Positions 17,170-60,318 of a DNA stretch of 64,000 nucleotides are shown in pieces; within the stretch, counting starts at the first letter, position 1, and the number at the start of each line of letters is the position of its first letter. The translations under genes were made by a program, and so were the position numbers. This stretch comes from an uncultured delta proteobacterium. Lineage in GTDB: Bacteria; Desulfobacterota; Desulfobacteria; Desulfobacterales; B30-G6. The notes beneath the pieces are model-generated. The model was given only the letters and a program-made list of their open reading frames with translations. It ran no database searches and was not told the origin of the DNA. The DNA is taken from the NCBI GenBank assembly GCA_963823335.1, contig CAWGLD010000004.1, positions 128,001 through 192,000 on the forward strand. The letters are read 5' to 3'.

Positions 17170-17240
17170 GCCTGTTGTGGTTATTTTCTCACATCGGTAA
17201 AATTATAGGAATCTGATATCTACCGGTTTGTTGGAGATAG
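17170..17240 (+). repeat. ICR copy A (right third only)
   Basis: gttgtggttattttctcacatcggtaaa...gatatctaccggtttgttggagatag. Confidence 0.85.
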
Positions 17241-17300
17241 TACAGATTTCGGATAGTATAATTTTCATGTGATATCAAAACGATATAAAAAAAATAGGGA

Positions 17301-18434
17301 CTACACTTGATCGCGCCATATCTCAAGCAGTGTTAAATCATCATTTACCTTAGCATTTCCGCGCCATATTTTGATTTCATCCAAAAGTCCCTTTCCCCTC
17401 GGCGATCCTTTATTCTCTTTAATATATCGAATCAATCGATTATTACCGAATAGCTCTTTATTTTCATTTTCTGCTTCGATAACGCCATCTGTGAAAAGAA
17501 GAACGGATTCTCCAGGAGATAGCATAATCTCTTGTTTTTCAAAAAGAACATTCGGCATTACGCCCAATGAAATTCCATTCAACTGAGGCAGGTTTCCAAT
17601 ACCGTCGTCAACGATCCACAAAGGCTGCAAATGACCGCCCAATGCTAATTGCATTTTTCCACTGACAGGCCAATATTTCACAAGAACAATTGTTGCAAAA
17701 AACCCTTCTTCGGATATCAGGCTGTACAGACTGTTATTAATGGATTCAAGGAGTTTACCAATTTCGATTTGAGTTTGGGCTTCACTACGGATTTTAGTTG
17801 ATAATGCAGCCATAATCAAAGCAGCAGGAACACCTTTATCTGAAACATCAGCTACATACGCCAGCAAGCTTCCATCATGCATTGGAATTACATCGTATAA
17901 ATCGCCGCCAACATATGTCGCAGGAACAGATACTGCCCAAATATGTCCCCCTGCTTCAAGTTCTGGAATTTCTGGCCAGAACAAAGATTGAATTTTGGTA
18001 GCAGTCTTAAGCTGTATTTTAAGCTGAGACGACTGCTCAATTACTGTGTCATGTAACAATTTAATCCGTAGCATCGACTTAACTCGAGCGACAAGTGCAG
18101 CGTGATCTACTGGCTTAGTTAAGTATTCATCACCACCTGCTTCAAGCCCAGCGACGACATCTTTTGAGTCCGATTTTGCGGTAACCAAGATGATCGGCAT
18201 AAAAGGCAAGGAAGGGTCTCCTTTAAGACGTCGACAAACCTCTAAACCATCTAATTTGGGCATCATAATGTCCAGCAGAATCAAATCGGGATGCTTTTCT
18301 CTAGCCATAGCCAGACCCAGTTGACCATCTGTCGCAGTGATAATATCATAATCATTTGCTAAAAGGCGCATTTGCAATATTTCTACATTCGCGGGACTAT
18401 CATCAACAATGAGGATCAGTGGTGGTTCTCTCAT
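17301..18434 (-). CDS. Response regulator with PP2C/SpoIIE phosphatase domain
   Basis: REC domain (DD, LLDIMMP, KP); VGGDLYD, ADVSDKG, FTDG, DDLT. Confidence 0.93.
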   Translation of the reverse strand: MREPPLILIVDDSPANVEILQMRLLANDYDIITATDGQLGLAMAREKHPDLILLDIMMPKLDGLEVCRRLKGDPSLPFMPIILVTAKSDSKDVVAGLEAGGDEYLTKPVDHAALVARVKSMLRIKLLHDTVIEQSSQLKIQLKTATKIQSLFWPEIPELEAGGHIWAVSVPATYVGGDLYDVIPMHDGSLLAYVADVSDKGVPAALIMAALSTKIRSEAQTQIEIGKLLESINNSLYSLISEEGFFATIVLVKYWPVSGKMQLALGGHLQPLWIVDDGIGNLPQLNGISLGVMPNVLFEKQEIMLSPGESVLLFTDGVIEAENENKELFGNNRLIRYIKENKGSPRGKGLLDEIKIWRGNAKVNDDLTLLEIWRDQV

Positions 18435-18453
18435 GTGTACCCTTTACTAAGGT

Positions 18454-18819
18454 CTATTGTAAAATATCACGGATTTTAATTAAGAGTGCTCGCGGACTAA
18501 ATGGTTTCGACACATATGCGTCGCAACCAGCCTCAAATGCCTTAACATCATCCCCGCTAAGGGCATATGAAGTGACTGCAATAATCGGAATTGAACTAAG
18601 AGCAGGCATGGCTTTGATCCTCCGTGTAGCTTCATATCCATCAAAGTCTGGTAATTGAATATCCATTAGAATTAGATCAGGGTGATGGGTCTCGGCTGCA
18701 CGAACCCCCTCCTCACCGGTGACCGCCTCTACTATTTCATAATCAGCGCTTGTAAGAAGATCTCGCATAATACGCCGATTATCCTCTTGGTCTTCGATAA
18801 CTAATATGAGCTTACTCAT
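18454..18819 (-). CDS. Single-domain response regulator (DivK-like)
   Basis: ED, LMDIQLP, KP. Confidence 0.93.
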   Translation of the reverse strand: MSKLILVIEDQEDNRRIMRDLLTSADYEIVEAVTGEEGVRAAETHHPDLILMDIQLPDFDGYEATRRIKAMPALSSIPIIAVTSYALSGDDVKAFEAGCDAYVSKPFSPRALLIKIRDILQ

Positions 18820-18820
18820 T

Positions 18821-20869: not shown

Positions 20870-20941
20870 GGACCTTATCCTCTATAGGGTAGAATATCAG
20901 CCATTTTTTAGTGGAATCTTTTTAAAAATGGTAATCATGTC

Positions 20942-21890: not shown

Positions 21891-22188
21891 GAGATCAAAT
21901 GTAATTTTAGAGTGTTATAAGATTAATACATGACATGGGGGAACGGGTCAAGGATTTGCTGTTTCCAAGATGATTGATTGGGATATCTTGTCCGAAAACC
22001 AAATATCGCTGAACCTTTGATTGATGGAGACAAGTCCAGTTATCAAGTTCAACGGAAATATTGCCGATACCATTCGGTCATCCCCACGGTACCATGGGAA
22101 CCACTATTAATTCAAGATTCGGTCGGTTGTGATTATTTTCGCACACCGGTAATTTTTAGGGTGCCTGATATTTACCGTTTTGTTGGAG
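21891..22188 (+). repeat. ICR copy B (full length)
   Basis: Has the promoter part, atggagacaagtccagttatcaagttcaac, cccacggtaccatggg, tgtgattattttcgca and the end ccgttttgttggag. Confidence 0.92.
21923..21951 (-). promoter_or_regulatory. Sigma70-like promoter inside ICR (TTGACC-N17-TATTAA)
   Basis: The same 17-bp spacing is conserved in five ICR copies. Confidence 0.65.
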
Positions 22189-22328
22189 CAACCGTGTTCG
22201 GAGTCAAGTCCTAATTTTGCTGCCAAAGCTTTTGATCCCGAAGCATCGCGTTTGTGACTATCAGCAATTTACGCATGTCAAAAGAGTTAGAAACGATGCC
22301 TGTGTTGTTGTAACATCCCGCAAAAATT

Positions 22329-23307: not shown

Positions 23308-23405
23308 GAGGTCAGATGTGATTTAAGCGTGTAATAAAAACAATACATATTTGGTTAGGATATGTCAAGGATTAGCTATCTTAAAGGATGGTTCTTGGGG
23401 ATAAC
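23308..23405 (+). repeat. ICR copy C (promoter part; TTGACA-N17-TATTGT on minus strand)
   Basis: gtgatttaagcgtg...tacat...tgtcaaggattagct aligns with copies B and O. Confidence 0.75.
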
Positions 23406-23769: not shown

Positions 23770-24090
23770 TTATATTGATGGTGTTGCGCCCCCTGTCAAC
23801 CCATTCAGCAGGTTTACAGCATTACGTTTGTGATCAGAACTCAGATGGGAATACCGCAGGGTCATGGTCATGGTTTTATGGCCCAGCAACTCCTGGACAT
23901 CCTTCAGCGATCCACCCCGCATGATAACCTGTGATGAAAAAGTATGCCTGAGGTCGTGGAAACGAAAATCCTGGAGGCCTGACCTCACCACAGCGGCCTT
24001 GAACCCTTTTTTGATATTACCCAAGGGCTTGTCATTGAACGTGAAAACATATTCAGACGTCAAGTGCTGCTCTTTCCGAATCGTTCGAAA
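23770..24090 (-). pseudogene. C-terminal fragment of a phage-type tyrosine integrase
   Basis: FRFHDLRHTF, VQELLGH and T.RYSHL (H-x-x-R, H, Y); the N-terminal domains and first catalytic Arg are missing. Confidence 0.88.
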
Positions 24091-24214
24091 TACAATACAC
24101 CAATGTTTCGACATTACAGTAAGAGATTAAACCAAACACTATTTGTCTAATTTATAACGTAATATTATATTGTTATGTTCATTTTAATATGTTTTATTTT
24201 TTTAAAATTCTATA

Positions 24215-26755: not shown

Positions 26756-26988
26756 TCTTTTTCAAATTTCTGTTATTAGACTATTTCTTCATTAAACTTA
26801 TATGTTATGCTAATGCCGGTTTTATCAGAAATCGGATTTTTTGCGTTTTGTGACCCACTCGTGCCCAACAGGATTTGGAGGGTGTCATGGCCGGCGCCCA
26901 GATACAAACCGTCAATTTGATCGAAGCGTTAGAGCAAAGTGCCAAGCGACATGGACTAACTGCTCGTTCCACAAGAAAGGATCCCAAT

Positions 26989-28014
26989 ATGCCGATACCT
27001 GGAAAGCTGCTTACCACCGCCATGGCTGTCATGCCTCACATCGATGTGGATCAAGCACTCGATGCCGCCCTCTCTCTAGATATACCCTTCTGGCCGCAGC
27101 TGCCGAATTACAACTATTATGAAGACATGTACGTTCAGGCCTCAGAACATTTTCCTGGCATCCTGCTGGATTTAGAAAAGCGAACCCTGAGGTTTTCGTT
27201 GGATAAATTTATCGAAGAATTTGAAGAATCCCAAGCCCGTTTCGATGATCCGTCCTATTTTGACATCAGCCCGACATTCTCTGCCGTATATCATCGGTTT
27301 TTAGAACTCGATCTATCAAACAGGACTGCAATTAGAGGACAATTGGAAGGACCCATCAGTTTTGGGTTCAACATTCTCGACCAGAATGAACGGCCAATTC
27401 TATTTGATGATACGATTCGCCCGTTCATGTTTGAATTCATGACCAAACGCATTAACGTACAATTAAAACGCCTAAAAAAGCGAAATGCTAATGCATTTAT
27501 GTTTGTTGATGAACCGGGCCTGCAGTTTCTGTTTTCAGCCATGTCGGGTTATGATGATCGAAAGGCCAAAAAGGACATGGATGATTTTTTTGCCATGATC
27601 GATCGTCCACGTGGTGTCCATCTATGTGGAAACCCTGACTGGGACTTTTTGCTGAACACGGATCTGGACGTGCTTTCCTTGGATGTGTTCACCAATGGAG
27701 AAATCTTTGCTTCCTATGGGGACAGCATCCTGCGCTATCTGAAACGGGGTGGTGTTCTGGTGTGGGGTATCGTGCCAACCGGCTTTGAAGACTTCTCAAC
27801 CGCGAACATAAGTGCACTGGGAAAGCAGCTTGAATACATATGGGATCACCTAGCCCGAAAAGGCATCGATTTGGACATGCTACTGCACCAAAGCCTGTTG
27901 TCGCCGGCAACCTGCTGTCTGGTCAACCCGGACAAGGAGAAAACGGTAGAAAAGGCGTTTGCCATGATCAATGAGCTTTCACAGTTTTTAAGAAAGAAGT
28001 TTGGATTCGCCTGA
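26989..28014 (+). CDS. Cobalamin-independent methionine synthase-like (URO-D/MetE fold) protein
   Basis: PFWPQLP, GQL.GP.S, DEP, GVHLCGN.DW, WGIVPT. Confidence 0.8.
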   Translation: MPIPGKLLTTAMAVMPHIDVDQALDAALSLDIPFWPQLPNYNYYEDMYVQASEHFPGILLDLEKRTLRFSLDKFIEEFEESQARFDDPSYFDISPTFSAVYHRFLELDLSNRTAIRGQLEGPISFGFNILDQNERPILFDDTIRPFMFEFMTKRINVQLKRLKKRNANAFMFVDEPGLQFLFSAMSGYDDRKAKKDMDDFFAMIDRPRGVHLCGNPDWDFLLNTDLDVLSLDVFTNGEIFASYGDSILRYLKRGGVLVWGIVPTGFEDFSTANISALGKQLEYIWDHLARKGIDLDMLLHQSLLSPATCCLVNPDKEKTVEKAFAMINELSQFLRKKFGFA

Positions 28015-28283: not shown

Positions 28284-28389
28284 ACCATATCTTGCATTGA
28301 TAGGGACCTCCGTGGTACGCTGGGCATAACCAAATGGTATCGGCAATAATTTGGTTGGGCTTGATAACTGGGCATCTCTCCATCTATCA
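28284..28389 (-). repeat. ICR copy D (inverted, central part)
   Basis: Reverse complement reads atggagagatgcccagttatcaagcccaaccaaattattgccgatacc...gtaccacggaggtccc...gcaagat. Confidence 0.9.
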
Positions 28390-28549
28390 CCACTTGACCA
28401 ATAATCCTATAATTTGTTTAACAAAAAAGTAAAGATGGTGTAAAAGGTTTTGTGGAGAAAGCGCTTAAGTGAAATAATTTAGCTTTTACATATTGCAATA
28501 TCTTTCCAATTTAGAAACACTGTGATTTAGCAATGAAAGGAGGAGAAAG

Positions 28550-30160: not shown

Positions 30161-30203
30161 ATTATCTCCCGAAGAGGTATGGACTTATAACGATCTTTTG
30201 GTT

Positions 30204-30217
30204 TCTCCAACAAAACG
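30204..30217 (-). repeat. ICR copy E (inverted terminal 14 bp only)
   Basis: tctccaacaaaacg is the reverse complement of the conserved end cgttttgttggaga. Confidence 0.55.
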
Positions 30218-30300
30218 CAGGCCATATTAGATGTCATATATAATCCCTTGCGGACTCAAAAAACCGCTGCTATCGGAACGTTATTATGACAAATGCTCAA
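30218..30300 (+). mobile_element. IS630-family 3' end fragment
   Basis: Nearly identical to 48893-48975. Confidence 0.85.
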
Positions 30301-30313
30301 ATTTTATAAATCT

Positions 30314-31208: not shown

Positions 31209-31862
31209 CTATCTTCCTATGAGCTTATCTTTCTTCAATTGACCCATAACTGCTTTGATCAATTGATTAAAAATGGTGTCTGCCGATGTCTCATCAACAG
31301 ATGCCGAGGACGCAGACCACATCAGTTTCTCGCTGGCCGTATCGTAAATAGTTGTCCTCAGCCGGACAAATTGGCGCGTTACAGTCCGAATTGGGTTTCT
31401 ATCCGCTTCTCGAAAAACAAAGACACTGTAAGACCCCATGTCTCTGTAGCTACGGTTGGGTCCGGCATCCGCTTTTTGCCCATCCAAGTCTTTCTGCTCT
31501 TCTCCCATACGAACCAGGTGGGTGAACAATACAGCTCCTAAATGATTATTGGCGGCAGTTTCTTTGATGATCTCCTTGTGGTCCATTATATTCTCTGTGG
31601 TCAGTTTTCTGCTCTCCGGCATAATTTTGTATGCGCAGACAGCGTTGACACCTTTCTTTTGGAAGGCGTCGACAAATAGATCTTCAAAATGCTGACGGAC
31701 ATCGTCATGCTTTGCGACACCGAGCACCATGATACTGTCTATGGATCTATCTTTAAACGTGTCATTTTTCCGGACGTTTGTTAAGGAGGTCGATGGGGCG
31801 CAGGCTGCCAAAAGCAGTATTGTGAGTGCTATAAATATTTTTACAAATACCTTTCTGTTCAT
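31209..31862 (-). CDS. Lipoprotein of unknown function
   Basis: Lipobox LAAC; R..FED.F and IYD...KL.WS motifs. Confidence 0.75.
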   Translation of the reverse strand: MNRKVFVKIFIALTILLLAACAPSTSLTNVRKNDTFKDRSIDSIMVLGVAKHDDVRQHFEDLFVDAFQKKGVNAVCAYKIMPESRKLTTENIMDHKEIIKETAANNHLGAVLFTHLVRMGEEQKDLDGQKADAGPNRSYRDMGSYSVFVFREADRNPIRTVTRQFVRLRTTIYDTASEKLMWSASSASVDETSADTIFNQLIKAVMGQLKKDKLIGR

Positions 31863-32119
31863 AAAAAAGCTCCTATATCCCAAACTGAGCGGTTTTGTGT
31901 TTGAACAACAAAAAGCCTTGTCGGCGAGAGGCAAAAAGCGAAGAGACCTTGTTATCGGACGCGATAGTTCATCTCTAATCAACAACGCATATTATTTTTA
32001 GCACGATTTGGTCAAATATCCCAGATTTTTTGCGCACTTCACCTTACGATTTATGTGCTTGATTCTATGTATCAGCCAGCCCTAAGTTATGGCCGGCGCA
32101 TATTGACAGCGTTTAAAAA

Positions 32120-32410
32120 GTTCAGGTGTAATTTGAACGCAATATAAGGTACATATATGAATTGGGGAAATGGGTCAAGAAATGGGGTGTTTTAAACGTT
32201 TTGAACAGGATGTTTTGGAGCTAAACCTGCCATGTCCGGCCGGTGATGTATGGAATCTTAGTTCCTGACATTACAAGAAATATTGCCGATACCATCTAGT
32301 TATCACCACGGTATCATGGCAGGGCTTATGAATGCAAGATTTGGCCTGTTGTGATTATAATCGCACACCGGTGAAATTTGAGGGGCCTAATAACCTTGTT
32401 TTTGTTAGAG
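32120..32410 (+). repeat. ICR copy F (full length, diverged)
   Basis: gggtcaag promoter part, aaatattgccgataccat, ccacggtatcatgg, tgtgattataatcgca, end ttttgttagag. Confidence 0.88.
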
Positions 32411-32570
32411 TTACCAAAGTTATTTGCAGATCAAAATTATTACAGATATGTCAACTTAAAGGAATCTTGGACATGACTTAAGAGTTGCTCTTGTTAAGAT
32501 TTATTAAATTTGGAGTTAATAATAACTCACATTAAATGCCCCTTAAACAGAACAGAGCTATCCCTTATAA

Positions 32571-33167
32571 TTATTTCGCTATGTTGTCTCTTAAAAGTGT
32601 CAGCCCTTCTTCACGGGCTTTGAGAATAGTTTTCAGGCTAACACCTTTCATCTCCTGGCGGAGGATGACAAAATCTTTCAATACTTGGCGATATATTAGA
32701 TATTCATCTTTTCCCGAGATATTCGCTGCGACCTTTGAGTTGAAAAGAAAATTATCGATCGGCCCGTTTTTTCCGTTTCGATTTCCCTCGGAAAGATCGA
32801 CACAATGATCCTGATAAACCAGAAAACAGTGCACCATCGGAAGGTAGGGAAGATTATATCTGTCTAGAATTTTTCCTGTCCCACTAACAATCTCTTCTGT
32901 CATCGCGTAGATACCGATGTTCTTTACAATCTTTAAATTTAGTTCGGCCGCCAGGGTTCCGATGACCGCATGTTTGGTCGTGCAGCTCCCCATTTTCTCC
33001 TTAAAAAGAATCATTACGTCGTCTCGATTTGAGTTGTAGCCGTAAGGCAGTTCATACACATAGCGGCAAGCACTCTGGAAATCTTTTATCCCCAGATCCA
33101 GAAAAGTCTGTGCAATTAAGCCCGCTTTTTCTATCGGTTTGTTTGGGAAAACAGTATGTTTTTTCAT
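32571..33167 (-). CDS. Hypothetical protein (possible transglutaminase-like fold)
   Basis: LPYGYNS, GSCTTKH, HCFL....DL pattern of a Cys-His-Asp triad. Confidence 0.65.
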   Translation of the reverse strand: MKKHTVFPNKPIEKAGLIAQTFLDLGIKDFQSACRYVYELPYGYNSNRDDVMILFKEKMGSCTTKHAVIGTLAAELNLKIVKNIGIYAMTEEIVSGTGKILDRYNLPYLPMVHCFLVYQDHCVDLSEGNRNGKNGPIDNFLFNSKVAANISGKDEYLIYRQVLKDFVILRQEMKGVSLKTILKAREEGLTLLRDNIAK

Positions 33168-35725: not shown

Positions 35726-35753
35726 GGGCTGCCTTTTTAAAAATCAGATTTTG

Positions 35754-36413: not shown

Positions 36414-36459
36414 GGCTTTTCCTCAAAAACCGTTTATTGTTATGTCCGATTCGAACGGG

Positions 36460-40069: not shown

Positions 40070-40175
40070 TTCTTTCCTCCATTTTGTAATGAATTTATAT
40101 TGAAAAATTGACCTAAATAAGAACAACAAGCAAACATAGTCGTTTAATAACAGTTGGAGGAAAATAGCATGGGAT

Positions 40176-41126: not shown

Positions 41127-41240
41127 ATTAAAAGGACATTTCAGAAAGCAATATATTGGGAACCATCAATACCACAACTTATTCGTCCAAACAATTTTCA
41201 GATATGATATCCATTTGCCCGGTATAACCTAACTTGAGGT

Positions 41241-41406
41241 ATATGGAGATAAGTCCAGTTATCAAGTTCAACGGCAATATTACCGATACCATATGGTAAT
41301 GCACACGGTAGCATGGCAGATACTATGACTGCAAGATTTGGTCGATTGTAATAATTTTCGCACACCGGTAATATTTTAGAGGGTTGATATCTACCTTTTT
41401 GTTGGT
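41241..41406 (+). repeat. ICR copy H
   Basis: atggagataagtccagttatcaagttcaacggcaatattaccgatacc...gatatctacctttttgttgg. Confidence 0.92.
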
Positions 41407-42565: not shown

Positions 42566-42708
42566 CTTTAATGTCCTTCCATGTTCCTATGTGCTGCACA
42601 AAACAGGTGCATCCGTGATCCTAATTCGGCAATGACCTATAATAATCCCTATCTAAGCTTTTTAAATAGAACCTATCGCAAAAATGCATCATACAGGATC
42701 GTCGAACG

Positions 42709-42876
42709 TGATATATGGAATCGTGCGTTTTTGAATTTATCGAAATTTTACCGATACCATATGTTCATCACCACGGTACCATGTAAGGGCTTATGAATGC
42801 AAGATTTGGTCGATTGTGATTATTTTCGCACATCGGTAAATTTTTCAGGCACCTGATATCTACCGTCTTGTTGGAG
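42709..42876 (+). repeat. ICR copy I
   Basis: ttaccgataccatatg...ccacggtaccatg...tgtgattattttcgca...gatatctaccgtcttgttggag. Confidence 0.92.
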
Positions 42877-42877
42877 C

Positions 42878-42928
42878 GTTGTGGAGGCTCCGCGAGCTAC
42901 ACCCTACGGGCTCGCTCGCCTCCACAAC
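42878..42928. repeat. GC-rich hairpin abutting the ICR end
   Basis: gttgtggaggc...gcctccacaac arms with inner gcgagc/gctcgc. Confidence 0.65.
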
Positions 42929-43006
42929 ACCTACCTATAGGAAAGGTACCAGCTATCACAGGTAGGGGAAAAGCTGCTTATAGATAGGCGCTTTGGTTCT
43001 GGTTAT

Positions 43007-46000
43007 TTACTTTGTCATCCTCTCGTGCAACCGTTCCGCCTGTAGGCAGAAGGCCTCCAGCTTTGCGTGGATGAGCTGCGGAAAAGGTGACCCGTCACTT
43101 TCAAGTGCCAGAAAGGGCAATGCTTCAATGGTTTCGAGTGTTTTTTGCAAATGGGTATCTGAGGGGGTCAACTGAAGTTTGTCCTCTCGTTGCATAGCTT
43201 TGCTTAGTATTGCCTCCGACAGTCGATTGGGCATGCATCCAAAGGGTCCTATGGCGATGACGCCACAGACATGGGATGCGATTTCGAGTAGGGAACTCCC
43301 AATGGTCAATATGGCCTCGCCTGTCAAGTCGGGTGATATATAAGGGGTGGCATGCCGGATAATATCCTTCATGACCAAAGGCGTGCTTGCCAGGAGTCCG
43401 GATCCTGCGAGAATGGACCGGATGCTATGCTCGTCATGTGCCATGATTTTTTTTCGAAGCTTGAAGCGTAATTTCTCCATCATCGACATGCCACCTCCGA
43501 CAATCCCTTTTTGGATAAGGAAATCGGTGTAGTGAATCCATTCCGCCACGGGTGAACAGATGGTTGCCATCCCCATTTCAGCCAGCTGTTCCGGGATGTT
43601 TTGACGAGAAAGTGTATCCTTTCTCACAAATATTTCACCGGTCAGTAAGACTTTTGATACGCATGCCACAGGCCGTTTTAACGGAATGCCGGCGAGATCG
43701 CCCGCTCCTGCGCTTAAACGTATGAGGAGCTGATTAAAATCGACTGTCTTGAGGCTGTCCAGGAGGCCTTCCCAGATCGTTTGAAACAGGTGTAGCGCTT
43801 CAGACACATGCACGGCATTTGCCAAAAGCATGGACCGGATGTCTTCCATCATGTCAGATACAACGACTGCCCACCAGGCTGCCCGGTCGAAAGTTTTGTG
43901 CAACCCGAGATAGGCATTTTCGGATGAAAGGGAGAGCATGGCTACATCGGGTATGCCAAGCCTCTTTATCAGATCCTCCATGAAGATATAATACTGACCG
44001 AACCGGCAGGGGCCGGTACCGGTAGCCATGAAATAGACCAAAATTTCACCCGGCTTTTGGCGGGTATGGATATAGTTCAGCAGGGACCCCGTGGTCAGGA
44101 TCAATGGAAGGCATTCCTTGCAAGAGGTATGGCCTCTCCCCAGCTTTAAAATCGATTCATCCGCCGGAGGATGAGCAATGGCATTGATGCCAAGGCCATT
44201 AAAGACGGCGGTTATGGCCTCTGAAGCCAGTTTACCCATGGACGGCAGCAGGACCGTGACACGGGGATCTGTGAGTATAACCTTTTCACCGGCGGCAGTC
44301 ACGACGGTTACCCTGCCGTTGACAAGGGATGTTCCGGTCATCTTGAAAGGGTGTTCCGCCATGTCGATTTTCTGACGCTTGACGAGCTGCCTGAAGGCTG
44401 AGACAATATCGGTAAAGGCTTCGATTCTGGTGTCGATCCCGGCATCCGCCGTATGGCTGTCCAGTTCCAGGGTCAGGGATGGTTTTTTCCCCATTATTGA
44501 TCTGAAATAACCCACCAGAAACGAGTCGGGTCCGCATGAAAAATTGGTGATAAACACACCGAAAAGCTGGGGGTGCTGCTTGACGAACCGCGCAGCTTTC
44601 AGGATCATCTGACCCATTCCCCAATACATGTGGCGTTTAGGCTTCTCGTTATCGAAGGGGATAAAATCGAAGGGTATGACAAGGATTCCTCGGGATGCCA
44701 GTTTGCGTGGGATCCCCATATTGGCTTCTTCCACCAATCCATTGTAGGACCGCGAAAAAATGACGACACCGATTTTTTCAGAATCCGATTCGAGCTCGGC
44801 CAAGGCTTGTTGCCCGAGCATTTTCATTTCAGTCATGCATCGCATTTGTTGAGTATATGCCTCATCAAACGCTCTCTTGGCGGCCTTTCCGGAAAATCCC
44901 ATTTTCAACGCTGTCGTGACCATGGGGGTCCTGGCATCTTCCAGACCGTTTTTCAGATCCAGGAGCGGTTGGAGAATCCGGGTGCCTCTTTTCTGTAAAC
45001 CCCGAAGCTGTTCTCTGAAAGTCGTTTGCAGAAAAAATGTTTCACCTTGCACAAATGGACAGACTTGTGAAGACCGGTCGCCATTTTGTGCAGGAATGGA
45101 TTTGAAATGGGGTAAAAAAAGATGTTCGGGTGGCGGGTCGGCTGTAATCAGGGAGTGAAAAAAACCATGCGAAAGCTCGGCCGGATAACAGAACGGCGCA
45201 TTGCGCTGGTCGATCCCGCTATACGAGATGCCTTCCGGCAGAACCGGCCGGTAACCGAGTAAAGAAAAAAAGGTCGAATACAGCGGATAATAGGTGTTGA
45301 CCATGAAACTCCTGTTGATGCCGATGGATCCTTTTTCCGCCTGCCTGTAACGTTGCGGACCGTTGACCCCATATTTTTCAAAAACAAGCCGCTGGCGGAT
45401 TCTCACCAGATCGAGCGTGTCAACAGGATGTTTTACCTTGTGCCGGAGGTTGTCATATCGATTGCACGCACCGCCGAACGGGTAGCGCCTTCCTTCGATT
45501 TCGATCAATTCAATGGGGCATTGCCGATCACATTTTTCCTTACCTCCTTTGCAGATGAAGGGTTTCCCATAAGCAACACGTCGATGGGCAAGGGTTTTCA
45601 GCGAGAAGGCTTTCACCGCTGTCATTCCGGCTTCGATACGCTTTTTGACCACCAGCGCCACACCAAAAGCACCCATGAGTCCTGGCTCCGGGGGAACGAT
45701 AATAGGCTTTCCGGTAATCGACGCCATGGCCATGGGGACTGCCCTGTTGTAACACACGCCCCCCTGTAGAAAGATTTTATTGCCGATGGGTCTGTTTCCT
45801 TTGACACGATTGGCATAATTCATACAGATGGCGTAGACTAGCCCGGCCACGATGTCCTCGTGTCGAATGTCTTCATGGATGGCATTTTTGATGTCCGATG
45901 ATATGAATGCAGCACATTGATCATTGAAATTCGGCGGCTTTTCTCCTTTTAATGCTACGGAAGCGATATCTTCCATGCCGAGACCGAGAGATTCCATGGC

Positions 46001-47338
46001 GGATTCTTCCAGAAAGGAGCCGGTTCCGGCAGAACAGGCTTCGTTCATGGCATAATCAGAGGGAACACCATTGTTAATATAGGTATATTTGGCATCCTGG
46101 CCTCCGATTTCAAATATCGTATCGACCTGGGGATCAAAGTATACCGCAGCCGTTGCGTGAGCGATAATTTCATTGATGACACAGTCGGTTAACGCATGGA
46201 GCCCGGCTATTTGTCGACCTGAACCGCATACACCAAGCCCGATGATCGATAGGTCGGAAGGTTCCACCCGGTGTTGAACCTGTTCCAGAATCCGGGCATA
46301 ACATTTACGGCTGGCCCCTACCGGGTCTCCATTTGTTCGCAGGTATACAGATGCCAGCAGGGCCTGATCCGACTTTCTTAACAATACTGCCTTGGTTGTT
46401 GTGGAGCCTACGTCGAGTCCGAGGATACAGGTATCGCCGGGTACGATCATACCCATGGCCATTGATTTAAACGTTACCCGATCTTTGAAAGGAATCAGCG
46501 GTGGTAGTGACTGGAATGAAGCCATTCCTGTCTTAAAGATGTCGTTAGCGTCCGTTATCGGGATCGTTTCGTTTTTGAGTGCCCACAAGGCGGCTCCCAT
46601 GGCTTCAAAATAGGGACCGGTTTCAGGTACGATGAGACCGGGAATTTTCTGCCGTAGGTACGCCACCATCATATGGTTTTTAACCGAACCTCCGGTGATC
46701 ATAATGTCGCGTTTTTCAACTTTTTTAAGAAGCTCTATAATTTTGCCCGCCATCATTTTACAGAGACCGGCTGTGACCTTTGATTTGGGGGTGCCCCTGT
46801 TGGTGGCATGTGTGCAATCGGATTTACAGAAAACAGAACAACGACCCGAGACGTGGTGAGGGGTCGCTTCAACCGCCCATTGAGCTGCCTCATCCAGGCT
46901 GACGTTCATTCTTTTGATTTGCTGCAGAAAGAATTCACCTGTTCCGGAGGCGCATTTGTTGCCAGTCAGTACATTAGATATTCGGCCTGAACTGTCCAAG
47001 ACGTAGACCATAAAGGTTTCACCACCGGCCGATACAATCGCAGGGCACGAAATACCCTTTGGTTTGATGTAGCCATAGGCGTGCTCTACGGACTCAGGCT
47101 CGGAAATGGATGAAAGGTGGATAAACTTACGGAATTTTCTGCCTGTAGCGGCAATCCTATCGAAAGAAGTCAGATCCAGCGCGCCAAGTGCCGATCTAAG
47201 TGTTTTTTTTGGATTGCCGTCATGGGGGTGGCGTGAGAAATTGACGATATTTGGCCGGTCAATACCAGCCGTGGTATTCTGTTCCAACTGGACCATGGAA
47301 ACGGTTGATGCACCAAGACATATGCCGAGAGTTTTCAT
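43007..47338 (-). CDS. Acyl-CoA dehydratase activase fusion (two BcrAD/BadFG ASKHA domains + DUF2229-like)
   Basis: KCASGTG, GLDVGSTTTK, EIGGQDAKY, MNEACSAGTG, NFSCGPDSF, PFGCMPN. Confidence 0.9.
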   Translation of the reverse strand: MKTLGICLGASTVSMVQLEQNTTAGIDRPNIVNFSRHPHDGNPKKTLRSALGALDLTSFDRIAATGRKFRKFIHLSSISEPESVEHAYGYIKPKGISCPAIVSAGGETFMVYVLDSSGRISNVLTGNKCASGTGEFFLQQIKRMNVSLDEAAQWAVEATPHHVSGRCSVFCKSDCTHATNRGTPKSKVTAGLCKMMAGKIIELLKKVEKRDIMITGGSVKNHMMVAYLRQKIPGLIVPETGPYFEAMGAALWALKNETIPITDANDIFKTGMASFQSLPPLIPFKDRVTFKSMAMGMIVPGDTCILGLDVGSTTTKAVLLRKSDQALLASVYLRTNGDPVGASRKCYARILEQVQHRVEPSDLSIIGLGVCGSGRQIAGLHALTDCVINEIIAHATAAVYFDPQVDTIFEIGGQDAKYTYINNGVPSDYAMNEACSAGTGSFLEESAMESLGLGMEDIASVALKGEKPPNFNDQCAAFISSDIKNAIHEDIRHEDIVAGLVYAICMNYANRVKGNRPIGNKIFLQGGVCYNRAVPMAMASITGKPIIVPPEPGLMGAFGVALVVKKRIEAGMTAVKAFSLKTLAHRRVAYGKPFICKGGKEKCDRQCPIELIEIEGRRYPFGGACNRYDNLRHKVKHPVDTLDLVRIRQRLVFEKYGVNGPQRYRQAEKGSIGINRSFMVNTYYPLYSTFFSLLGYRPVLPEGISYSGIDQRNAPFCYPAELSHGFFHSLITADPPPEHLFLPHFKSIPAQNGDRSSQVCPFVQGETFFLQTTFREQLRGLQKRGTRILQPLLDLKNGLEDARTPMVTTALKMGFSGKAAKRAFDEAYTQQMRCMTEMKMLGQQALAELESDSEKIGVVIFSRSYNGLVEEANMGIPRKLASRGILVIPFDFIPFDNEKPKRHMYWGMGQMILKAARFVKQHPQLFGVFITNFSCGPDSFLVGYFRSIMGKKPSLTLELDSHTADAGIDTRIEAFTDIVSAFRQLVKRQKIDMAEHPFKMTGTSLVNGRVTVVTAAGEKVILTDPRVTVLLPSMGKLASEAITAVFNGLGINAIAHPPADESILKLGRGHTSCKECLPLILTTGSLLNYIHTRQKPGEILVYFMATGTGPCRFGQYYIFMEDLIKRLGIPDVAMLSLSSENAYLGLHKTFDRAAWWAVVVSDMMEDIRSMLLANAVHVSEALHLFQTIWEGLLDSLKTVDFNQLLIRLSAGAGDLAGIPLKRPVACVSKVLLTGEIFVRKDTLSRQNIPEQLAEMGMATICSPVAEWIHYTDFLIQKGIVGGGMSMMEKLRFKLRKKIMAHDEHSIRSILAGSGLLASTPLVMKDIIRHATPYISPDLTGEAILTIGSSLLEIASHVCGVIAIGPFGCMPNRLSEAILSKAMQREDKLQLTPSDTHLQKTLETIEALPFLALESDGSPFPQLIHAKLEAFCLQAERLHERMTK

Positions 47339-47507: not shown

Positions 47508-47680
47508 ATATGGAGAAAATCTTTATAATTTGGGAATTTGGAAATATTACCGATACCATCTGGTCATGCCCACGGTACCATGGGAGCCCCTATCAATGCA
47601 AGATTTGGTCGATTGTGATTATTTTCGCACATCGGTAAATTTTCAGGGGTATGATATCTACCGTTTTGTTGGAGATAGTG
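47508..47680 (+). repeat. ICR copy J
   Basis: gaaatattaccgataccatctggtcatgcccacggtaccatggg...gatatctaccgttttgttggagatag. Confidence 0.93.
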
Positions 47681-47693: not shown

Positions 47694-48380
47694 CTAACAA
47701 TTAAAAGGGTAAAGGTAACGTTCACTAGGGCTCCATAAAAACGTCACTTCTGCAGGTTGAAATTCGACTCCATTAACACACATTGGAGGAAGCATAATGC
47801 TAAATTCTTGAGGATTACCAAACATCCCATCTGTCTCTATGTCTATATACATATGTGTGCCATATTCCCCTTTTCCTTGAAGTGTCCACCCAAATGGCGC
47901 CAATTTCAAATTATTCTCATCACGAGAAGACCTAACATATACAAGCCAGTTAGGGCATATATTTCGGTATCGAGTTTCTCTAATTTCCACTTTTTTTATT
48001 CTAAACTCGTATTCGTTTTCTGCCTGCGGATTTTTTAATACAATGATATTTGATTTAAAATCCAAAACACTTCCTGTCGGCACATATATTCCTATCTCTC
48101 CAAAAACACCCTTGCCCGTTGCACCGCTTATCAGTCCTTCGATTCCCTTTTCCCCATTCCATGCGGCCAAGAATAACTGAACTCCTTTAGGCCCCTCAAT
48201 TACAAGGACTTCCTCAGGGCCAGTACCACCACAGCAATCTCTCCTCGCAACATGGTGTTCAACTCCGTTGTAAATAGGGTGAAAGTATGGACCCATCTCA
48301 ATATAAGCACACGCTGACAACCATACGGGTGCCAGTGGTAAAAGAAGTAAAATCGAGATGAATTTTAACATAACCACCAC
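47694..48380 (-). CDS. Hypothetical lipoprotein
   Basis: Signal with LSAC lipobox; the sole gene between ICR copies J and K. Confidence 0.65.
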   Translation of the reverse strand: MVVMLKFISILLLLPLAPVWLSACAYIEMGPYFHPIYNGVEHHVARRDCCGGTGPEEVLVIEGPKGVQLFLAAWNGEKGIEGLISGATGKGVFGEIGIYVPTGSVLDFKSNIIVLKNPQAENEYEFRIKKVEIRETRYRNICPNWLVYVRSSRDENNLKLAPFGWTLQGKGEYGTHMYIDIETDGMFGNPQEFSIMLPPMCVNGVEFQPAEVTFLWSPSERYLYPFNC

Positions 48381-48413
48381 ATCTTGGGCCTATCTTTGTT
48401 ATTGTCAAACCGT

Positions 48414-48472
48414 TGATACATGGAGAGATGTCCAGTTATCATACTCAACAAAATTATTACCGATACCATCTG
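48414..48472 (+). repeat. ICR copy K, left piece
   Basis: atggagagatgtccagttatcatactcaacaaaattattaccgataccatctg. Confidence 0.88.
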
Positions 48473-48637
48473 AATATATGCAGTCTATCGTAATTTTGAA
48501 ACACGTGTCAAATGGTAGCGGCTAATAACGCTGCTTTGTTCCAATAAACAAAATGCTTTTAGCAGGCGCCAGTAGACAGCTTGTCTGTGATACTTTGTTG
48601 GTCTCCAATCGCATATTAAGAAAATGGATTGACTGTC

Positions 48638-48975
48638 TCGGTAACCTATCAGGCATTTTTGGATGAAGCGAGTAAAACCGTTTCATTTCAAAGAACGATC
48701 AATATCTTGATTATGGACAATGCCTCATGGCATCGAAAAATATCGACCAAATGGCATGGATGACAACCAAAATATTTGCCACCATATTCGCCAGATTTAA
48801 ATCCTATCGAAAGAATCTGGCTTACAATGAAAGCACGCTGGTTCAATAATCATGTTTGTAAAAACGAAGAACAACTATTAGAGCGCTTGGGTCAGGCCAT
48901 ATTAGATGTCATATATACTCCCTTGCGGACTCAAAAAACCGCCGCTATCGGAACGTTATTATGACAAACGCTCTA
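48638..48975 (+). mobile_element. IS630-family transposase 3' remnant with terminal repeat
   Basis: IMDNASWH...G*QPKYLPPYSPDLNPIERIW (DDE_3 motifs, in-frame TGA); ends tgacaaacgctcTA. Confidence 0.88.
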
Positions 48976-48978
48976 ATT

Positions 48979-49040
48979 TATGATTATCTTCGCACATCGG
49001 CAGTTTTTCAGGCGCCTGATATCTACCGTTTTGTTTGAGA
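48979..49040 (+). repeat. ICR copy K, right piece
   Basis: tgattatcttcgcacatcgg...gatatctaccgttttgtttgaga. Confidence 0.85.
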
Positions 49041-49188
49041 AATTACCGGTTTTGAGAGGAATCTTTTTCGAGTGACCACGATGATGTGTCGTAGGTTCAA
49101 GGCAACACGCATGAATGATACTACCATAATGGCCATGTGATAGAAATTGTAAATGGGATCATTCGGGTCATATGGCCCGGCTGATCCT

Positions 49189-52105: not shown

Positions 52106-52162
52106 ATTAATCCCTCAGTATCTATCTTACAACCTTCACAATGTTAACATTGATCGATCCAT

Positions 52163-52363
52163 GTATGATTTGGAAGCAAGGTTAAATAGATACATGATTT
52201 TGTAGGATGGGTCAAGAAAACGAAAGGTCAGACATTTCGTATGGCCTTTTTGGGAGTTAATCCTTATAGGCTCGAGCCTTTGATATATGGAGAGATGTTT
52301 AGTTATCAAGCCCAACCAAATTATTGCCGATACCATCTGGTCATGTCCACGGTACCACGGAGG
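52163..52363 (+). repeat. ICR copy M (promoter + central part, right end missing)
   Basis: tacatga...gggtcaag; atggagagatg..agttatcaagcccaaccaaattattgccgataccatctggtcatgtccacggtacc. Confidence 0.88.
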
Positions 52364-52410
52364 GGGATATGAATATTGGGAGTATATTCCATTTGTATGT
52401 ATCTCGCAAA

Positions 52411-53094: not shown

Positions 53095-53196
53095 AAGGAA
53101 TTCTGCCTAATTTAGATTCGCTCGCTAACCCCGCAGCATGCGAAGCACTGCCGGACGGCAGAACCTACGGGTAATGCACTCGCTGTTTCGGTTCAA
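53095..53196 (-). mobile_element. Partial family-2 IS200/IS605-type element with a small insertion in its hairpin
   Basis: Matches 11317-11393 (aaggaattctg...gattcgctcgctaaccccgcagca...ctcgct.tttcggttcaa). Confidence 0.75.
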
Positions 53197-53249
53197 GGCT
53201 TAAGGGTATTCAGTATAAAATCAATAAGACAAAACATCGTTAACATACC

Positions 53250-53432
53250 GATATATTTAGATAAACTTAGTTATCGAGTTTGAGGTAAACTTTACCGATG
53301 TCATCGGGTCATGCCCAGCGTACCACGGAGGTCCCCATCAACGCAAGATTTGGTCTGTTGCGATTATTTTCGCACATCGGAAAAATTCAGGGGTCTGATA
53401 TCTACCGTTTTGTTGGAGATGTCACCGGTTTC
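53250..53432 (+). repeat. ICR copy N
   Basis: tttaccgat...gcccagcgtaccacggagg...tgcgattattttcgca...gatatctaccgttttgttggagat. Confidence 0.92.
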
Positions 53433-56938: not shown

Positions 56939-57027
56939 GGTTTTCTCCTTTGTTACAGGTGTTCAGCATTCAAAAGTGTTTATTTGTGGTGTTACGCCTT
57001 CGGTAGATTGGTATAAATAGTAAAATA

Positions 57028-57158
57028 GTCAACTACCACCCGTGAAACGGGTGGCTTGGATTTCCCCCAAAATGGGGGAAAAACAAAGGAGACGGCACGT
57101 CTCCGTAAGTTCAGGTTCGGAACCGCGTGCCAAGCACGCGGTTTGTAGAACAATCAAA
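57028..57158 (-). mobile_element. Non-autonomous IS200/IS605-type palindromic element, family 1, copy 2
   Basis: Near-identical to 6609-6738 with unrelated flanks. Confidence 0.75.
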
Positions 57159-58026: not shown

Positions 58027-58298
58027 AACGCACTTCCATTTCGATAGCTAATCCGCGTTCCCAATGCTCTATCCTCCTATAGTTGATATCATTTTAAAAA
58101 ACCGATAGCTGCAGTTTTGTTATCGGAAATTGTCCGTTGAAGACTTATGCCAGTCATCTTCAATTTTTCTTGATATTTCCTGCCATATTTTAAGTGCCCA
58201 ACAATGCTAAGAAACCACTTTGGATCAGATTGGCCCTGCCATCTGGTTAAGGCAGGTAATACTCTATGAGAGATGAATAAATATTTTTAACCTTTTCA

Positions 58299-59981
58299 CT
58301 ATTCCTGCCACACGACTGGCCTATTCTCCTCATACCAAGCGTTGGAGTAAGGGCCATAGACTTCTTCTAGCTTGGAACGCTTGAGTTTCATGGTGGGTGT
58401 CAGAAAGCCATTTTCCGGGAGCCATTCATCCTTGGCCACAGCCACAAATGCCAGTCGCTCGTGATGAGGGAGCTCGCGATTAATACTATTTAGATGCTCT
58501 GCAAGATCCCCTTCGATTGCTGTTTTTTTTCCCTGATCGATGGCTTCCCGGGCACCTTCCGATAACATCACTAACGCATGCGGTTGAGGATATCCCGAGC
58601 CAGTTACACAACACGCCTCGACATGCTGGTTTAAGGCGAGCTGATTTTCGATGGGTGCGGGCGCAACGTACTTTCCTTTAGATGTTTTAAACTGTTCTTT
58701 TGCACGGCCGGTGATCTTGAGGCGCCCCTTCTCATCAATCTCTCCAAGATCCCCTGTTTTAAAAAATCCGTCCTCAGTAAACTCCTCTTTGGTCTTTTCC
58801 GGCATCTTGTAGTAACCCATCATGTTTCCGGGGCTCTTGACCAGGATTTCGCCTGCCTCGCTAATTCTCTGTTGCACATCCGGATATGGAGGGCCTACGT
58901 AGCCGGGACGCACCTCTCCGGGTTTGGTGCAGTGTGAGTAAGCGAAGTTTTCGGTCATGGCATACCCTTCAAGCAGTTCAAGCCCCAGGTTACGATACCA
59001 CTCGATGATTTCTTTGGGGATCGGAGCAGAGCCAGAACCAGCAAACCTTACATGGTCCAGTCCCAGTTGGGCAAGGATCTTCTTTTTTACAAGACCTTTA
59101 ATAATTGGAATCTTAAAAAGGAGATCAAGTTTTTTCGGAGGTATTTTCTGAAAGATACCGAGCTGGAACTTGAGCCACAGCCGCGGTACCGAAATGAACA
59201 GTGTCGGGCGCGCGCGTTGCAAATCCGCAATGAAGGTTTCAAGACTCTCGGCAAAATACAGCGGAAAGCCGACATATAGAGAATGCGACTCAACGACCCA
59301 GCGCTCAAATGCATGTGATAAGGGCAGATATGACAGAAATCGGTCACGTTCATGGGTCTTGAGATACTCTGAAATACCTTTGGCGCTATGGTGCATGGTA
59401 CCGAAGCTAATCATGGCACCCTTAGGTTTGCCGGTACTTCCCGATGTGTAAATGATCGTGGCTAACTCATCAGGTAATCGTTCGGCCGGCTCTGTCAGAG
59501 GTTCGTGATCGGCGACAATACCATCCCACTGATCCAAATTACTTTCAGGAGCGAGGGGAAAAGCGATCTGGGGCATGTCAGCGGGCACACCTTTTTTCAT
59601 TTCGTCCCAGACCGGGTCGAGTTTGCCGACAAAGAGAAGCTTGGAGTCCGAATGCTCGAGGGTATATTGGACAATATCAGCCGTTAGAATCGGGAAAATC
59701 GGGATGCTGACGTGTCCTGCCATCCAGATGGCCAAATCCGCTAAAACCCAATGGGCGCAGTTTTTGGAGCATATGGCGATGTGGCTCGGCTCAGGTAAAT
59801 TGAGGCTTTTGAGGTAGGTGGCCATGCGCCGGGCCTCGCCAACCGCTTCTTTCCAGGTCCAGGTCTTGAGGTTGGCATCACCGCCACCGAGGGGTTGGGT
59901 GAGGTACATCTGATCCGGAGTAACACGTTCCCAGTAATAAGCACATTCCAGCAGGTTTTTACTATCTGTCATGGGTATCAT
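58299..59981 (-). CDS. AMP-binding long-chain acyl-CoA synthetase
   Basis: YTSGSTGKPKG, SYLPLSH..ER, EGYAMTE, TGDLG, LTPTMKLKR. Confidence 0.93.
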   Translation of the reverse strand: MIPMTDSKNLLECAYYWERVTPDQMYLTQPLGGGDANLKTWTWKEAVGEARRMATYLKSLNLPEPSHIAICSKNCAHWVLADLAIWMAGHVSIPIFPILTADIVQYTLEHSDSKLLFVGKLDPVWDEMKKGVPADMPQIAFPLAPESNLDQWDGIVADHEPLTEPAERLPDELATIIYTSGSTGKPKGAMISFGTMHHSAKGISEYLKTHERDRFLSYLPLSHAFERWVVESHSLYVGFPLYFAESLETFIADLQRARPTLFISVPRLWLKFQLGIFQKIPPKKLDLLFKIPIIKGLVKKKILAQLGLDHVRFAGSGSAPIPKEIIEWYRNLGLELLEGYAMTENFAYSHCTKPGEVRPGYVGPPYPDVQQRISEAGEILVKSPGNMMGYYKMPEKTKEEFTEDGFFKTGDLGEIDEKGRLKITGRAKEQFKTSKGKYVAPAPIENQLALNQHVEACCVTGSGYPQPHALVMLSEGAREAIDQGKKTAIEGDLAEHLNSINRELPHHERLAFVAVAKDEWLPENGFLTPTMKLKRSKLEEVYGPYSNAWYEENRPVVWQE

Positions 59982-60029
59982 GGTTTTCCTCCTTGTACTT
60001 TTTAGCAGATGTTACCGATTTTACGCTCC

Positions 60030-60093
60030 GGTCTTTGGCATAATAAGAAAGAATGGCTCTACGTTTGCGAGTGACTTTTTGTTCGTTTGGCAT
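60030..60093 (-). pseudogene. Very short adenylate-cyclase N-terminal stub
   Basis: MPNEQKVTRKRRAILS with the same GAAGGTGATC RBS as the stub at 51122. Confidence 0.6.
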
Positions 60094-60201
60094 CGGATCA
60101 CCTTCAACAGTTGGAGTGAATAGAAGATGATATTTCTTGGAGAGGATCTTACAAATTGAAAAGGAGGTCAGGACAGGCACCAGTTCTTTTTTCAGTATCA
60201 C

Positions 60202-60318
60202 GTCAGCAGTGATTTAAGCGTGCTTTAAAATTTATATATGACATGCTAGAACAGGTCAAGAGATTTACTGTTTCCACGATGGTTGATATGGATATCTTGT
60301 CTGAAAATCAATTATCGG
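60202..60318 (+). repeat. ICR copy O (promoter part; TTGACC-N17-TATAAA on minus strand)
   Basis: atgacatg...ggtcaag...ctgtttcca.gatg.ttgat..ggatatcttgtc.gaaaa closely matches copy B. Confidence 0.85.

Follow-up and report, generated by a model that had tools for sequence, protein, structure and literature searches.

How did a series of functionally unrelated gene blocks come to stand in a row, each separated from the next by a copy of the same intergenic repeat, in the genome of an uncultured delta proteobacterium? We addressed this question for a 64-kb stretch of DNA (hereafter the window), which corresponds to positions 128001-192000 of contig C4 of a 4.37-Mb, 11-contig genome (G000). C1 to C10 denote contigs of G000, and names of the G0nn:Cnn and L0nn types denote contigs of other genomes and loci fetched from these genomes or from G000. 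To our knowledge, no system other than integrons is well understood among those that stack unrelated genes into arrays through site-specific recombination; the way in which the attC sites of integrons become attached to genes is, as far as we know, still unsolved. The explanation to which we lean, at somewhat less than an even chance, is that the repeats are duplex-DNA junction sites of a cassette-shuffling system served by a recombinase acting in trans.

Three rounds of iterated nhmmer searches of the whole genome collected 99 copies of the repeat. A neighbour is found within 10 kb for 94 of them, compared with a mean of 35.6 and a maximum of 55 in 500 trials of random placement, which confirms that the copies are clustered. 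They form 14 clusters of 2 to 20 matches each, spanning 207.5 kb or 4.8% of the genome. The largest array (C7:199.8-236.0k) harbours 20 copies in a single direction, and genome-wide 74 of the 80 neighbour pairs are on the same strand. Flanking open reading frames (ORFs) are co-directional with the repeat in 62/67 cases upstream and 54/66 cases downstream. The 43 ORFs scanned in the window include two-component systems, a pst operon, an aldo-keto reductase, a BcrAD-type activase, acyl-CoA synthetases, LysE and MscL. The C7 array (31 ORFs scanned) consists mostly of single genes, notably for Ni-SOD, a GDSL lipase, an MFS transporter, YceI/rhodanese proteins, an acyltransferase and esterases, and also carries an IS110-type element, a DDE insertion sequence (IS) and a second intron. 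The view of the first-pass annotation, made from the letters of the window, that the copies lie between functionally unrelated gene blocks is thus supported, and the copies are in addition clustered and co-oriented.

The element was found in 11 of the 14 further genomes of the same family; of 26 genomes from other families of the order, 2 have it. An exact-pattern scan of a species collection yielded 40 stretches, whose records correspond to uncultured delta proteobacterium, Desulfobacterales, Desulfosarcina sp. or Thermodesulfobacteriota, with the exception of two very short contigs binned as Chloroflexota and Zixiibacteriota. A core of the element had no match in 72,556 plasmid and 50,697 phage records (blastn, distant mode), and we found no description of such an element in the literature searched, supplementary files being outside its scope.

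In the direction of the genes, the order is gene stop, spacer, sharp start of the element (T-n-T-CTCCAAC), core, optional leader and next gene. The sharp end follows the stop codon at a median distance of 77.5 nt, with spacings ranging from a few to ~100 nt. Among 63 copies, the information content jumps from at most 0.7 to at least 1.3 bits at the C of CTCCAAC; a weak G-A-T-n-T preference precedes it, and the sequences upstream of the sharp end are mutually unrelated. Conservation is high over ~172 nt and ends at ...GGACTT-n-TCTCCATGTATC (58 copies), such that the 8-nt word T-n-T-CT-CCA is found at both core edges in direct orientation. In a set of 92 non-redundant, length-scored copies from G000 and its relatives, the sharp end and the distal motif are 161 nt apart in 69 cases and 159-163 nt apart in 88. 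Approximately 13 copies run on into a ~110-nt leader with a conserved CTTGACC box and A/T-rich boxes ~17 nt later. The contrast drawn earlier between a sharp and a ragged end was correct as regards the sharp end, which is real, but the latter is the gene-proximal, upstream end, since the genes run opposite to the strand that was then read. The other end appears ragged because the sequence past the distal 12-mer belongs to the leader of the next cassette.

The core is a mosaic with four fixed junctions, namely the sharp end, J1 (after ...AATAATCACAA, 65 nt into the core), J2 (before GATGGTATC) and the distal motif. Modules A, B and C and the leader meet at fixed junctions and the middle parts are interchangeable, as in mosaic repeats; mean conservation reaches 86% in module A and 92% in the distal 12-mer. 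The usual J1-J2 middle of ~45 nt is replaced in three ways: by an intrinsic terminator and a promoter-like block (5 copies), by a terminator and a convergent tyrosine-recombinase gene (C1:164k and C9:36.3k), or by a ~446-bp insert (window 48532-48977). These swappable middles, in particular the clear terminator with its promoter-like block, and the boxes of the leaders speak for a different explanation, which we regard as a serious possibility, less probable than the one we favour: a passive mosaic intergenic repeat in the manner of NIME, BIME or BOX, that is, a transcription-punctuation module without recombination machinery of its own. Such a repeat would build up in flexible islands and be shuffled by homologous or microhomology recombination, and mobile elements would use it as a safe landing pad. 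On the other side, the standard core has no terminator, and a consensus promoter and terminator scan of one full copy made no call inside the element. We only infer that the leader acts as a promoter, because that scan did not call it.

Within the window, a repeat search showed the family to be genuine, with direct families at the positions reported by the first-pass annotation and inverted arms at 28284. An nhmmer search seeded with the full copy 21891-22200 gave 13 window matches, on which a relaxed scan agrees; these searches bear out the copies reported there and their absence from the first 15 kb, no match being found left of 17165 in the window even with relaxed settings. The sharp-end 14-mer with at most 2 mismatches occurs 8 times in the window compared with 0.74 expected (0/100 shuffles reach 8), and 7 of these 8 words sit at element ends. 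The features are as follows, with HMM denoting positions in the hidden Markov model of the element.

17165..17239, minus strand: partial core with sharp end and module A only (HMM 224-298; nhmmer), left edge of the window array.
17304-18434: response-regulator/SpoIIE gene, whose stop is 64 nt before the partial core 17165..17239.
21895..22191, minus strand: full element (nhmmer), with core ~22017-22191 (sharp end 22188-22191) and promoter-like leader 21895-22016.
23312..23395, minus strand: leader-only fragment (HMM 2-85; nhmmer E = 2e-4).
23773..24114, minus strand: C-terminal fragment of a tyrosine recombinase, 114 aa, inside the array (Pfam PF00589, 59 bits).
28284..28405, plus strand: inverted partial core, modules B-C (HMM 109-230; repeat search and nhmmer).
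30202..30304, plus strand: inverted 17-nt sharp-end remnant joined to an 87-nt repeat (exact motif match; E = 1.2 for 30202-30235).
32122..32413, minus strand: full element, core and leader, between genes 32574-33167 and 31212-31985 (nhmmer).
41199..41405, minus strand: core and start of leader (HMM 87-293; nhmmer), behind the aldo-keto reductase gene 41540-42565.
42654..42876, minus strand: core and start of leader (HMM 73-295; nhmmer), behind the activase gene 43010-47338.
42877..42950, minus strand: fragment resembling the left end of the IS110-family element, immediately upstream of the sharp end.
47508..47677, minus strand: core (HMM 129-298; nhmmer), behind gene 47697-48380.
48382..49042, minus strand: single core split at J1 by the ~446-bp insert (nhmmer matches 48382-48531 and 48978-49042).
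52160..52374, minus strand: leader and modules C-B, without module A (HMM 3-218; nhmmer).
53166..53420, minus strand: core and part of leader (HMM 49-297; nhmmer).
60203..60321, minus strand: leader-only fragment (HMM 2-119; nhmmer), right edge of the window array.

The copy first placed at 30204 is thus inverted and has an exact motif match, but it is reduced to a 17-nt remnant; the 87-nt repeat beside it also flanks the insert, at 48893-48979. The variants proposed at 40421, 51219 and 51721 fall below the HMM threshold, but the first two have a ~36-nt block in common, as judged by eye. The response-regulator/SpoIIE gene block is also found in G007, with a complete core behind it, and the leader 21895-22016 stands before the SBP/two-component block 20945-17304. 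A complete pstSCAB-phoU-phoBR-type operon (33261-40129, minus strand) forms one unit between two elements, and the segment 32527-36872 is contiguous in G001 at 88-95% identity up to the end of that contig. No tRNA was found in the window.

What kind of constraint might fix the length of the core? We considered two options, a small gene (a frame of 42 codons on the opposite strand) and a small structured RNA, either of them present in many repeated copies, and find both very improbable. In most copies, exactly 168 nt separate the ATG of the frame from the sharp end, the two module C variants have equal lengths and similar residues, and synonymous changes are somewhat enriched (176 versus 252 non-synonymous, for 81 versus 280 possible). 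Against coding, the frame is open in only 16/53 copies, stop codons are not depleted (23/451 observed changes versus 17/378 possible) and there is no 3-periodicity (rank 27 of 64). A continuation of the frame into the nested recombinase gene was also rejected, as the latter has its own ribosome-binding site and start. Regarding RNA, RNAalifold found no consensus base pair on either strand among 84 non-identical copies, and there was no Rfam match, either at gathering score in the window or at E <= 1 on a full copy, so that the element corresponds to no known family there. A protein-DNA architecture, adopted by the core as duplex DNA, would account for a fixed length in the absence of both coding and RNA structure.

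The arrays are reminiscent of those of integrons, or of CALINs (attC clusters without an integrase). They consist of alternating ORFs and sites in one orientation, with gene units closed by a 3' conserved site that begins sharply just behind the stop codon; the cassette boundary is at the far end of the site, and the contents are unrelated accessory genes. In addition, CTCCAAC differs by one mismatch from RYYYAAC, and GTTGAAC is found ~142 nt from the start in some copies. attC sites are about 55-141 nt long, and the ~172-bp core exceeds that range. That the element is a true integron or CALIN with an unusually long attC is hardly credible, and it is refuted on the features tested. The whole genome has no TIGR02249 (IntI) match above the 265-bit cut-off, the best score being 88.5 bits on Xer-type genes far from the arrays. 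No pairing emerges from the 84 copies, a full copy folded as single-stranded DNA gives z = -1.10 and -1.11 on the two strands, and an attC model was rejected for lack of R''/R' or L''/L' pairing and of covariation between the two variable stretches. GTTGAAC is not conserved in position and does not covary with the start, and the cassette boundary bears no GTTRRRY, its word being TCTCCATGTATC. Unlike integrons, these arrays thus have no IntI, imperfect hairpin or R/L boxes, and their site combines fixed length with conserved primary sequence. The cassettes often come with a promoter-like leader of their own and can comprise entire operons, one genome holds 14 arrays, the cores are not homogenised and the resident intron runs in the direction of the genes (see below).

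The element does not correspond to a classical miniature inverted-repeat transposable element either: inspection of the consensus by eye showed no terminal inverted repeat (TIR) linking the two core termini, the copies are clustered, and a candidate target-site duplication was rejected, as the 4-mers flanking the two CTCC words match in 1/73 copies versus 0.9 expected. The earlier exclusion of both classes therefore stands. Palindromic or stem-loop blocks and a genome-wide spread, as in repeats of the NIME, BIME or BOX type, were not found, given that there is no conserved pairing and that 94/99 copies occupy 4.8% of the genome.

Do the units move? Units are duplicated and exchanged with junctions at the core edges. 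In the C7 array, a cassette is present twice in non-tandem positions (~213590-214686 and 227000-228096) at ~100% identity. Identity begins at TCTCCATGTATC, the upstream cores of the two copies being different variants, and at the far end it spans the whole next core and stops right after its TCTCCATGTATC. As both junctions are inside the distal 12-mer, the unit consists of leader, gene and core. Among the 92 copies, three pairs have an upstream gene in common; in the two clean ones, the cores are 99-100% identical and the downstream DNA is unrelated, and the third is out of register because of a small deletion.

Comparisons between genomes relied on the ends of matches of at least 500 bp, away from locus edges (n=95). 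Of these ends, 26 are within 300 nt of a core edge, and after removal of doubly fetched loci ~8 of ~20 are at most 10 nt from one. Junctions at the distal motif or up to 8 nt from it were identified for L061/C4 (directly after TCTCC), L048/C7, L020/window 22036 and L032/C1; the L048/C7 match, which comprises the Ni-SOD cassette, begins at the distal motif and ends at J1 of the core that follows. Sharp-end junctions (-10 to +3 nt) were found for L046/C7, L020/window 42876 and L020/C10. In the L046/C7 and L020/C10 cases, the relative has the same gene without a core, and homology ends 2-10 nt before the sharp end. The window core at 42876 with the aldo-keto reductase gene is found behind a different gene block in G007, and the leader 21891-22036 moves with its downstream genes in the same genome, without the core. 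More generally, the gene blocks of the window sit on different contigs in congeners. The first-pass annotation had envisaged breakpoints at a fixed base: gene order does differ between relatives with breakpoints at the repeat, but there are four positions at which these preferentially fall.

The left flank of the C7 array is conserved in 5 congeners, and the content past ~C7:198,990 is specific to G000. A fixed platform with conserved flanks was considered and rejected, as only the left flank is conserved, the right flank being on other contigs in the relatives. The conserved left flank also harbours a ~133-bp sequence (L029:1178-1311; G000 C7:196177-196310) that occurs at 95-98% identity in at least 12 places in G007 and several in G001, and represents a different, highly mobile small repeat.

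Core identity has a median of 74% within the genome versus 72.8% to relatives. For 18 of 35 cores the nearest relative is in another genome, and for 8 of 35 the nearest own-genome relative is in the same array. The cores are therefore not homogenised within the genome, and, outside the conserved blocks, an identity of ~74% is ill suited to recombination of the RecA type. These observations bear on the possibility of a passive repeat, with which the location of junctions at the ends of the best-conserved blocks (module A and the distal 12-mer), the lack of a dedicated linked recombinase and the ordinary operons between copies are all consistent; NIME arrays have likewise been proposed to promote exchange of neighbouring genes (available part of PMC1797815). 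A passive repeat nevertheless leaves unexplained how one and the same base came to join more than 60 unrelated genes to the core, why core length is kept within +-2 nt in the absence of coding and of RNA structure, and how a non-tandem duplication arose with both junctions in a 12-nt word amid dissimilar core variants. The low identity between cores is a further point against it.

Three mobile elements that are unrelated to each other make use of fixed positions in the core. One is a group II intron, identified by Rfam RF02012 (group-II-D1D4-7, 79.5 bits) and by Pfam RVT_N, RVT_1 and GIIM, and inserted co-directionally with the genes, 15-16 nt downstream of the distal-motif TCTCC. It occurs in eight copies in several genomes, with differing core variants and upstream genes; we initially took the downstream block common to these eight copies for cassettes, and rejected this when it proved to represent intron insertions. 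The example at L083:12390-14480 (G000 C1:96.4-98.5k) codes for a 481-aa reverse transcriptase/maturase. The loci of relatives with the intron are L021, L046, L053, L058 and L069, with three copies within 18 kb of G007:C20, and all 3/3 maturase matches of G000 lie in arrays. Targeting of the site by such an intron calls to mind the IIC-attC introns of integrons, but the latter enter attC on the bottom strand, opposite to the genes (available part of PMC3001079). The parallel with integrons thus holds for the kind of guest and not for its orientation.

An IS110-family element (Pfam PF01548, 70 bits, over the cut-off; NF033542, 129 bits, below the 140-bit cut-off) also resides in the arrays, which hold 3/4 of the IS110 matches of G000. 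IS1111-attC elements similarly insert at attC. In G012, the copy is located at the sharp end in the form ACAT-CT-[IS]-CT-CCAAC, with CT on both sides, and the G000 copy is followed by CT-CCAAC. Fragments of the left end of this element precede sharp ends at window 42877, C1:117129 and C9:36155. As described in the available part of PMC11208160 and in the abstract bioRxiv 10.64898/2026.03.19.712850, IS110 elements have no TIRs, excise without scars, target intergenic repeats and use a short recombination core (CT in IS621). IS200-type (Y1, 8 matches) and IS91-type (Y2, 1 match) transposases were not found inside any array.

The IS110-family element itself (L089:1257-2829, i.e. G000 C7:217.2-218.8k, and L090, i.e. 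G012:C309) has a ~240-nt left end with a hairpin, whose arms GTTGTGGAG / CTCCACAAC resemble the targeted sharp-end word. This hairpin may be part of a putative bridge RNA guide; at a relaxed threshold, Rfam gave for the element only a chance-level RsaD match (28 bits versus 50).

Which enzyme could act at these sites? The genome has 11 tyrosine-recombinase matches, 2 of which are Xer; of the 9 non-Xer proteins, 3 are inside arrays and 2 more within 5 kb. A Xer-like gene (best NCBIfam match of the XerA type, 100 bits versus a 220-bit cut-off) is nested with its terminator exactly between J2 and J1 of a core in two copies in G000 and in G001, where the layout of module C, recombinase and module A is the same. 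In the recombinase-bearing copies of G000 and G001, homology stops 6 nt from the distal motif. In G000, this gene has a frameshift in a run of nine A (L027:5900-5965; C1:163.9k), and the 97%-identical genes of G001 and G002 have the same 277-codon open frame from the A-run onward; the run may represent a slippery site, a mutational step of decay or an error in the sequencing.

It could be argued from this arrangement that the ~172-bp cores are internally deleted copies, inserted singly behind genes, of an element made of module C, the Xer-like gene and module A (~1.1 kb, C1:163.7-164.85k), and hence miniature non-autonomous derivatives. The precise nesting in G000 and G001, the end of homology 6 nt from the distal motif and the direct repetition of the 8-nt word at both core edges, as in attL/attR, fit this notion. 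We nonetheless consider it improbable. No pair of empty and filled sites was found, the bases beside the CTCC words match at chance level (1 versus 0.9 expected), and the recombinase copies in G000 are broken. In addition, other unrelated inserts also use J1/J2, such that the recombinase may be another guest, and module B is not clearly derived from the ends of the recombinase gene, as judged by eye.

Our favoured explanation, junction sites acted upon in trans, would work as follows. In variable islands of an uncultured Desulfobacterales (Desulfosarcina-type) lineage, the junction element would close accessory-gene cassettes, one unit comprising a promoter-like leader, one or more genes and the ~172-bp core. 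The core edges would be sites of conservative, site-specific recombination on duplex DNA, unlike the folded single strands of integrons, and the fixed 161-bp body may serve as a phased protein-binding scaffold. Given that the presence of the element is not followed by that of any one enzyme, a dedicated recombinase, if there is one, must act in trans. There are two candidates. One is the RNA-guided recombinase of the IS110 family, which demonstrably joins DNA at the sharp-end CT, and the other is the small tyrosine recombinase of Xer-like type that some cores enclose. Additional shuffling probably arises from recombination inside the few core blocks with good conservation. A bolder formulation, which we put forward as a tentative and rather doubtful proposal, is that of a hairpin-free counterpart of integrons, in which [leader-gene-core] cassettes would be captured, duplicated and exchanged between species through duplex-DNA recombination at T-n-T-CT-CCA words flanking a phased 161-bp scaffold, by an RNA-guided IS110-type or a Xer-like recombinase acting in trans and domesticated or borrowed from mobile elements of the arrays.

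Several observations weigh against site-specific shuffling. The genome has just one clean cassette duplication, and another candidate cassette junction, at TTGTCTCC (C7:231150 / C4:537268), was rejected, as the block encodes a DDE transposase. Breakpoints do not fall at one base, the internal junctions J1 and J2 are also used, and 6 match ends lie 19-74 nt inside module A. The preferred junctions are the ends of the best-conserved blocks, also expected from recombination in short identical tracts, and some units between copies are ordinary operons, e.g. pst-phoU-phoBR. Contigs from 4 of 24 public sequencing runs (~300-1,000 nt) break at the repeats and are too short to show circles or joints, the apparent joints resting on 21-50-nt sides inside the repeat family. 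As for the enzyme, no recombinase is consistently linked to the arrays in the genome, in disagreement with the linkage expected by the first-pass annotation; the tyrosine recombinases in or near arrays share just 26-34% identity, and most of them are fragments. The nested Xer-like gene is frameshifted in the A-run at C1:164k and truncated at C9:36.3k, and is present in 7/14 other genomes of the family versus 11/14 for the element; fetched loci of its distant homologues are devoid of the element. The IS110 lineage is found in just 2/14 of these genomes. Thus, of the gene-capture platform proposed at the outset, the clustering, co-orientation, unrelated blocks, breakpoints and one duplication hold, but neither a linked recombinase nor a single fixed base does.

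Other systems offer partial precedents. Gene modules with repeated sites or elements at their borders are arrayed by conservative recombination of duplex DNA both in the pdif modules of Acinetobacter plasmids and in IS26 translocatable-unit arrays. The XerC/D sites of pdif measure 28 bp and alternate in orientation, and IS26 has a transposase gene of its own; we see neither of these features here. Like our element, NIMEs, in which dRS3 repeats flank RS elements, have a short conserved word around a 50-150-bp body and are mosaic and clustered; they have been proposed to serve recombinase-mediated or homologous recombination and exchange of neighbouring genes, and are targeted by the recombinase of a mobile element (available part of PMC1797815). 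They differ, according to the same part of that source, in that many units are stacked per intergenic region and that the flanking word is an inverted repeat, whereas here there is one unit per gene junction, with direct-repeat words, a gene-following orientation and a fixed length. REP sequences targeted by IS110 elements show insertion at CT in a conserved intergenic repeat, without TIR or target-site duplication, and IS copies that mark rearrangement borders (available part of PMC11208160; abstract bioRxiv 10.64898/2026.03.19.712850). REPs are short palindromes spread genome-wide, in contrast with the long, unstructured, polar and island-confined repeat described here.

A few neighbouring features of the window were recorded in passing. 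A 379-aa ORF (26875-28011, plus strand) has no Pfam, NCBIfam or PDB-sequence match; it is single-copy in G000, is found in at least two places in G007 and also in G001 and G002, and adjoins the inverted core fragment. It is possibly an unrecognised mobile-element protein. Hairpin elements of short tandem words (…CGAACATCGAAC…) at 1644-1975, 6565-6833 and 10980-11471 are unrelated to the core element. A ~130-bp repeat that starts with a small hairpin, CCACCCGTGAAACGGGTGG, is present at 6608-6738 and 57027-57158, the two copies being 92-93% identical and 50 kb apart.

The architecture of the family is that of integrons in a different lineage, and even the kinds of mobile elements drawn to the site are shared. 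The site itself differs, being a long duplex without structure and of constant length, and an integron integrase is lacking. If recombination at the edge motifs is true, cassette platforms would have arisen more than once, by different chemistry. The variable islands of abundant sulfate reducers of marine sediments would then gain a defined mechanism of assembly, and the arrays would provide a natural case of an RNA-guided IS110-type recombinase shaping gene order. If the repeat is passive instead, it would still clearly exemplify, beyond Neisseria, how gene exchange can be organised by an intergenic repeat.

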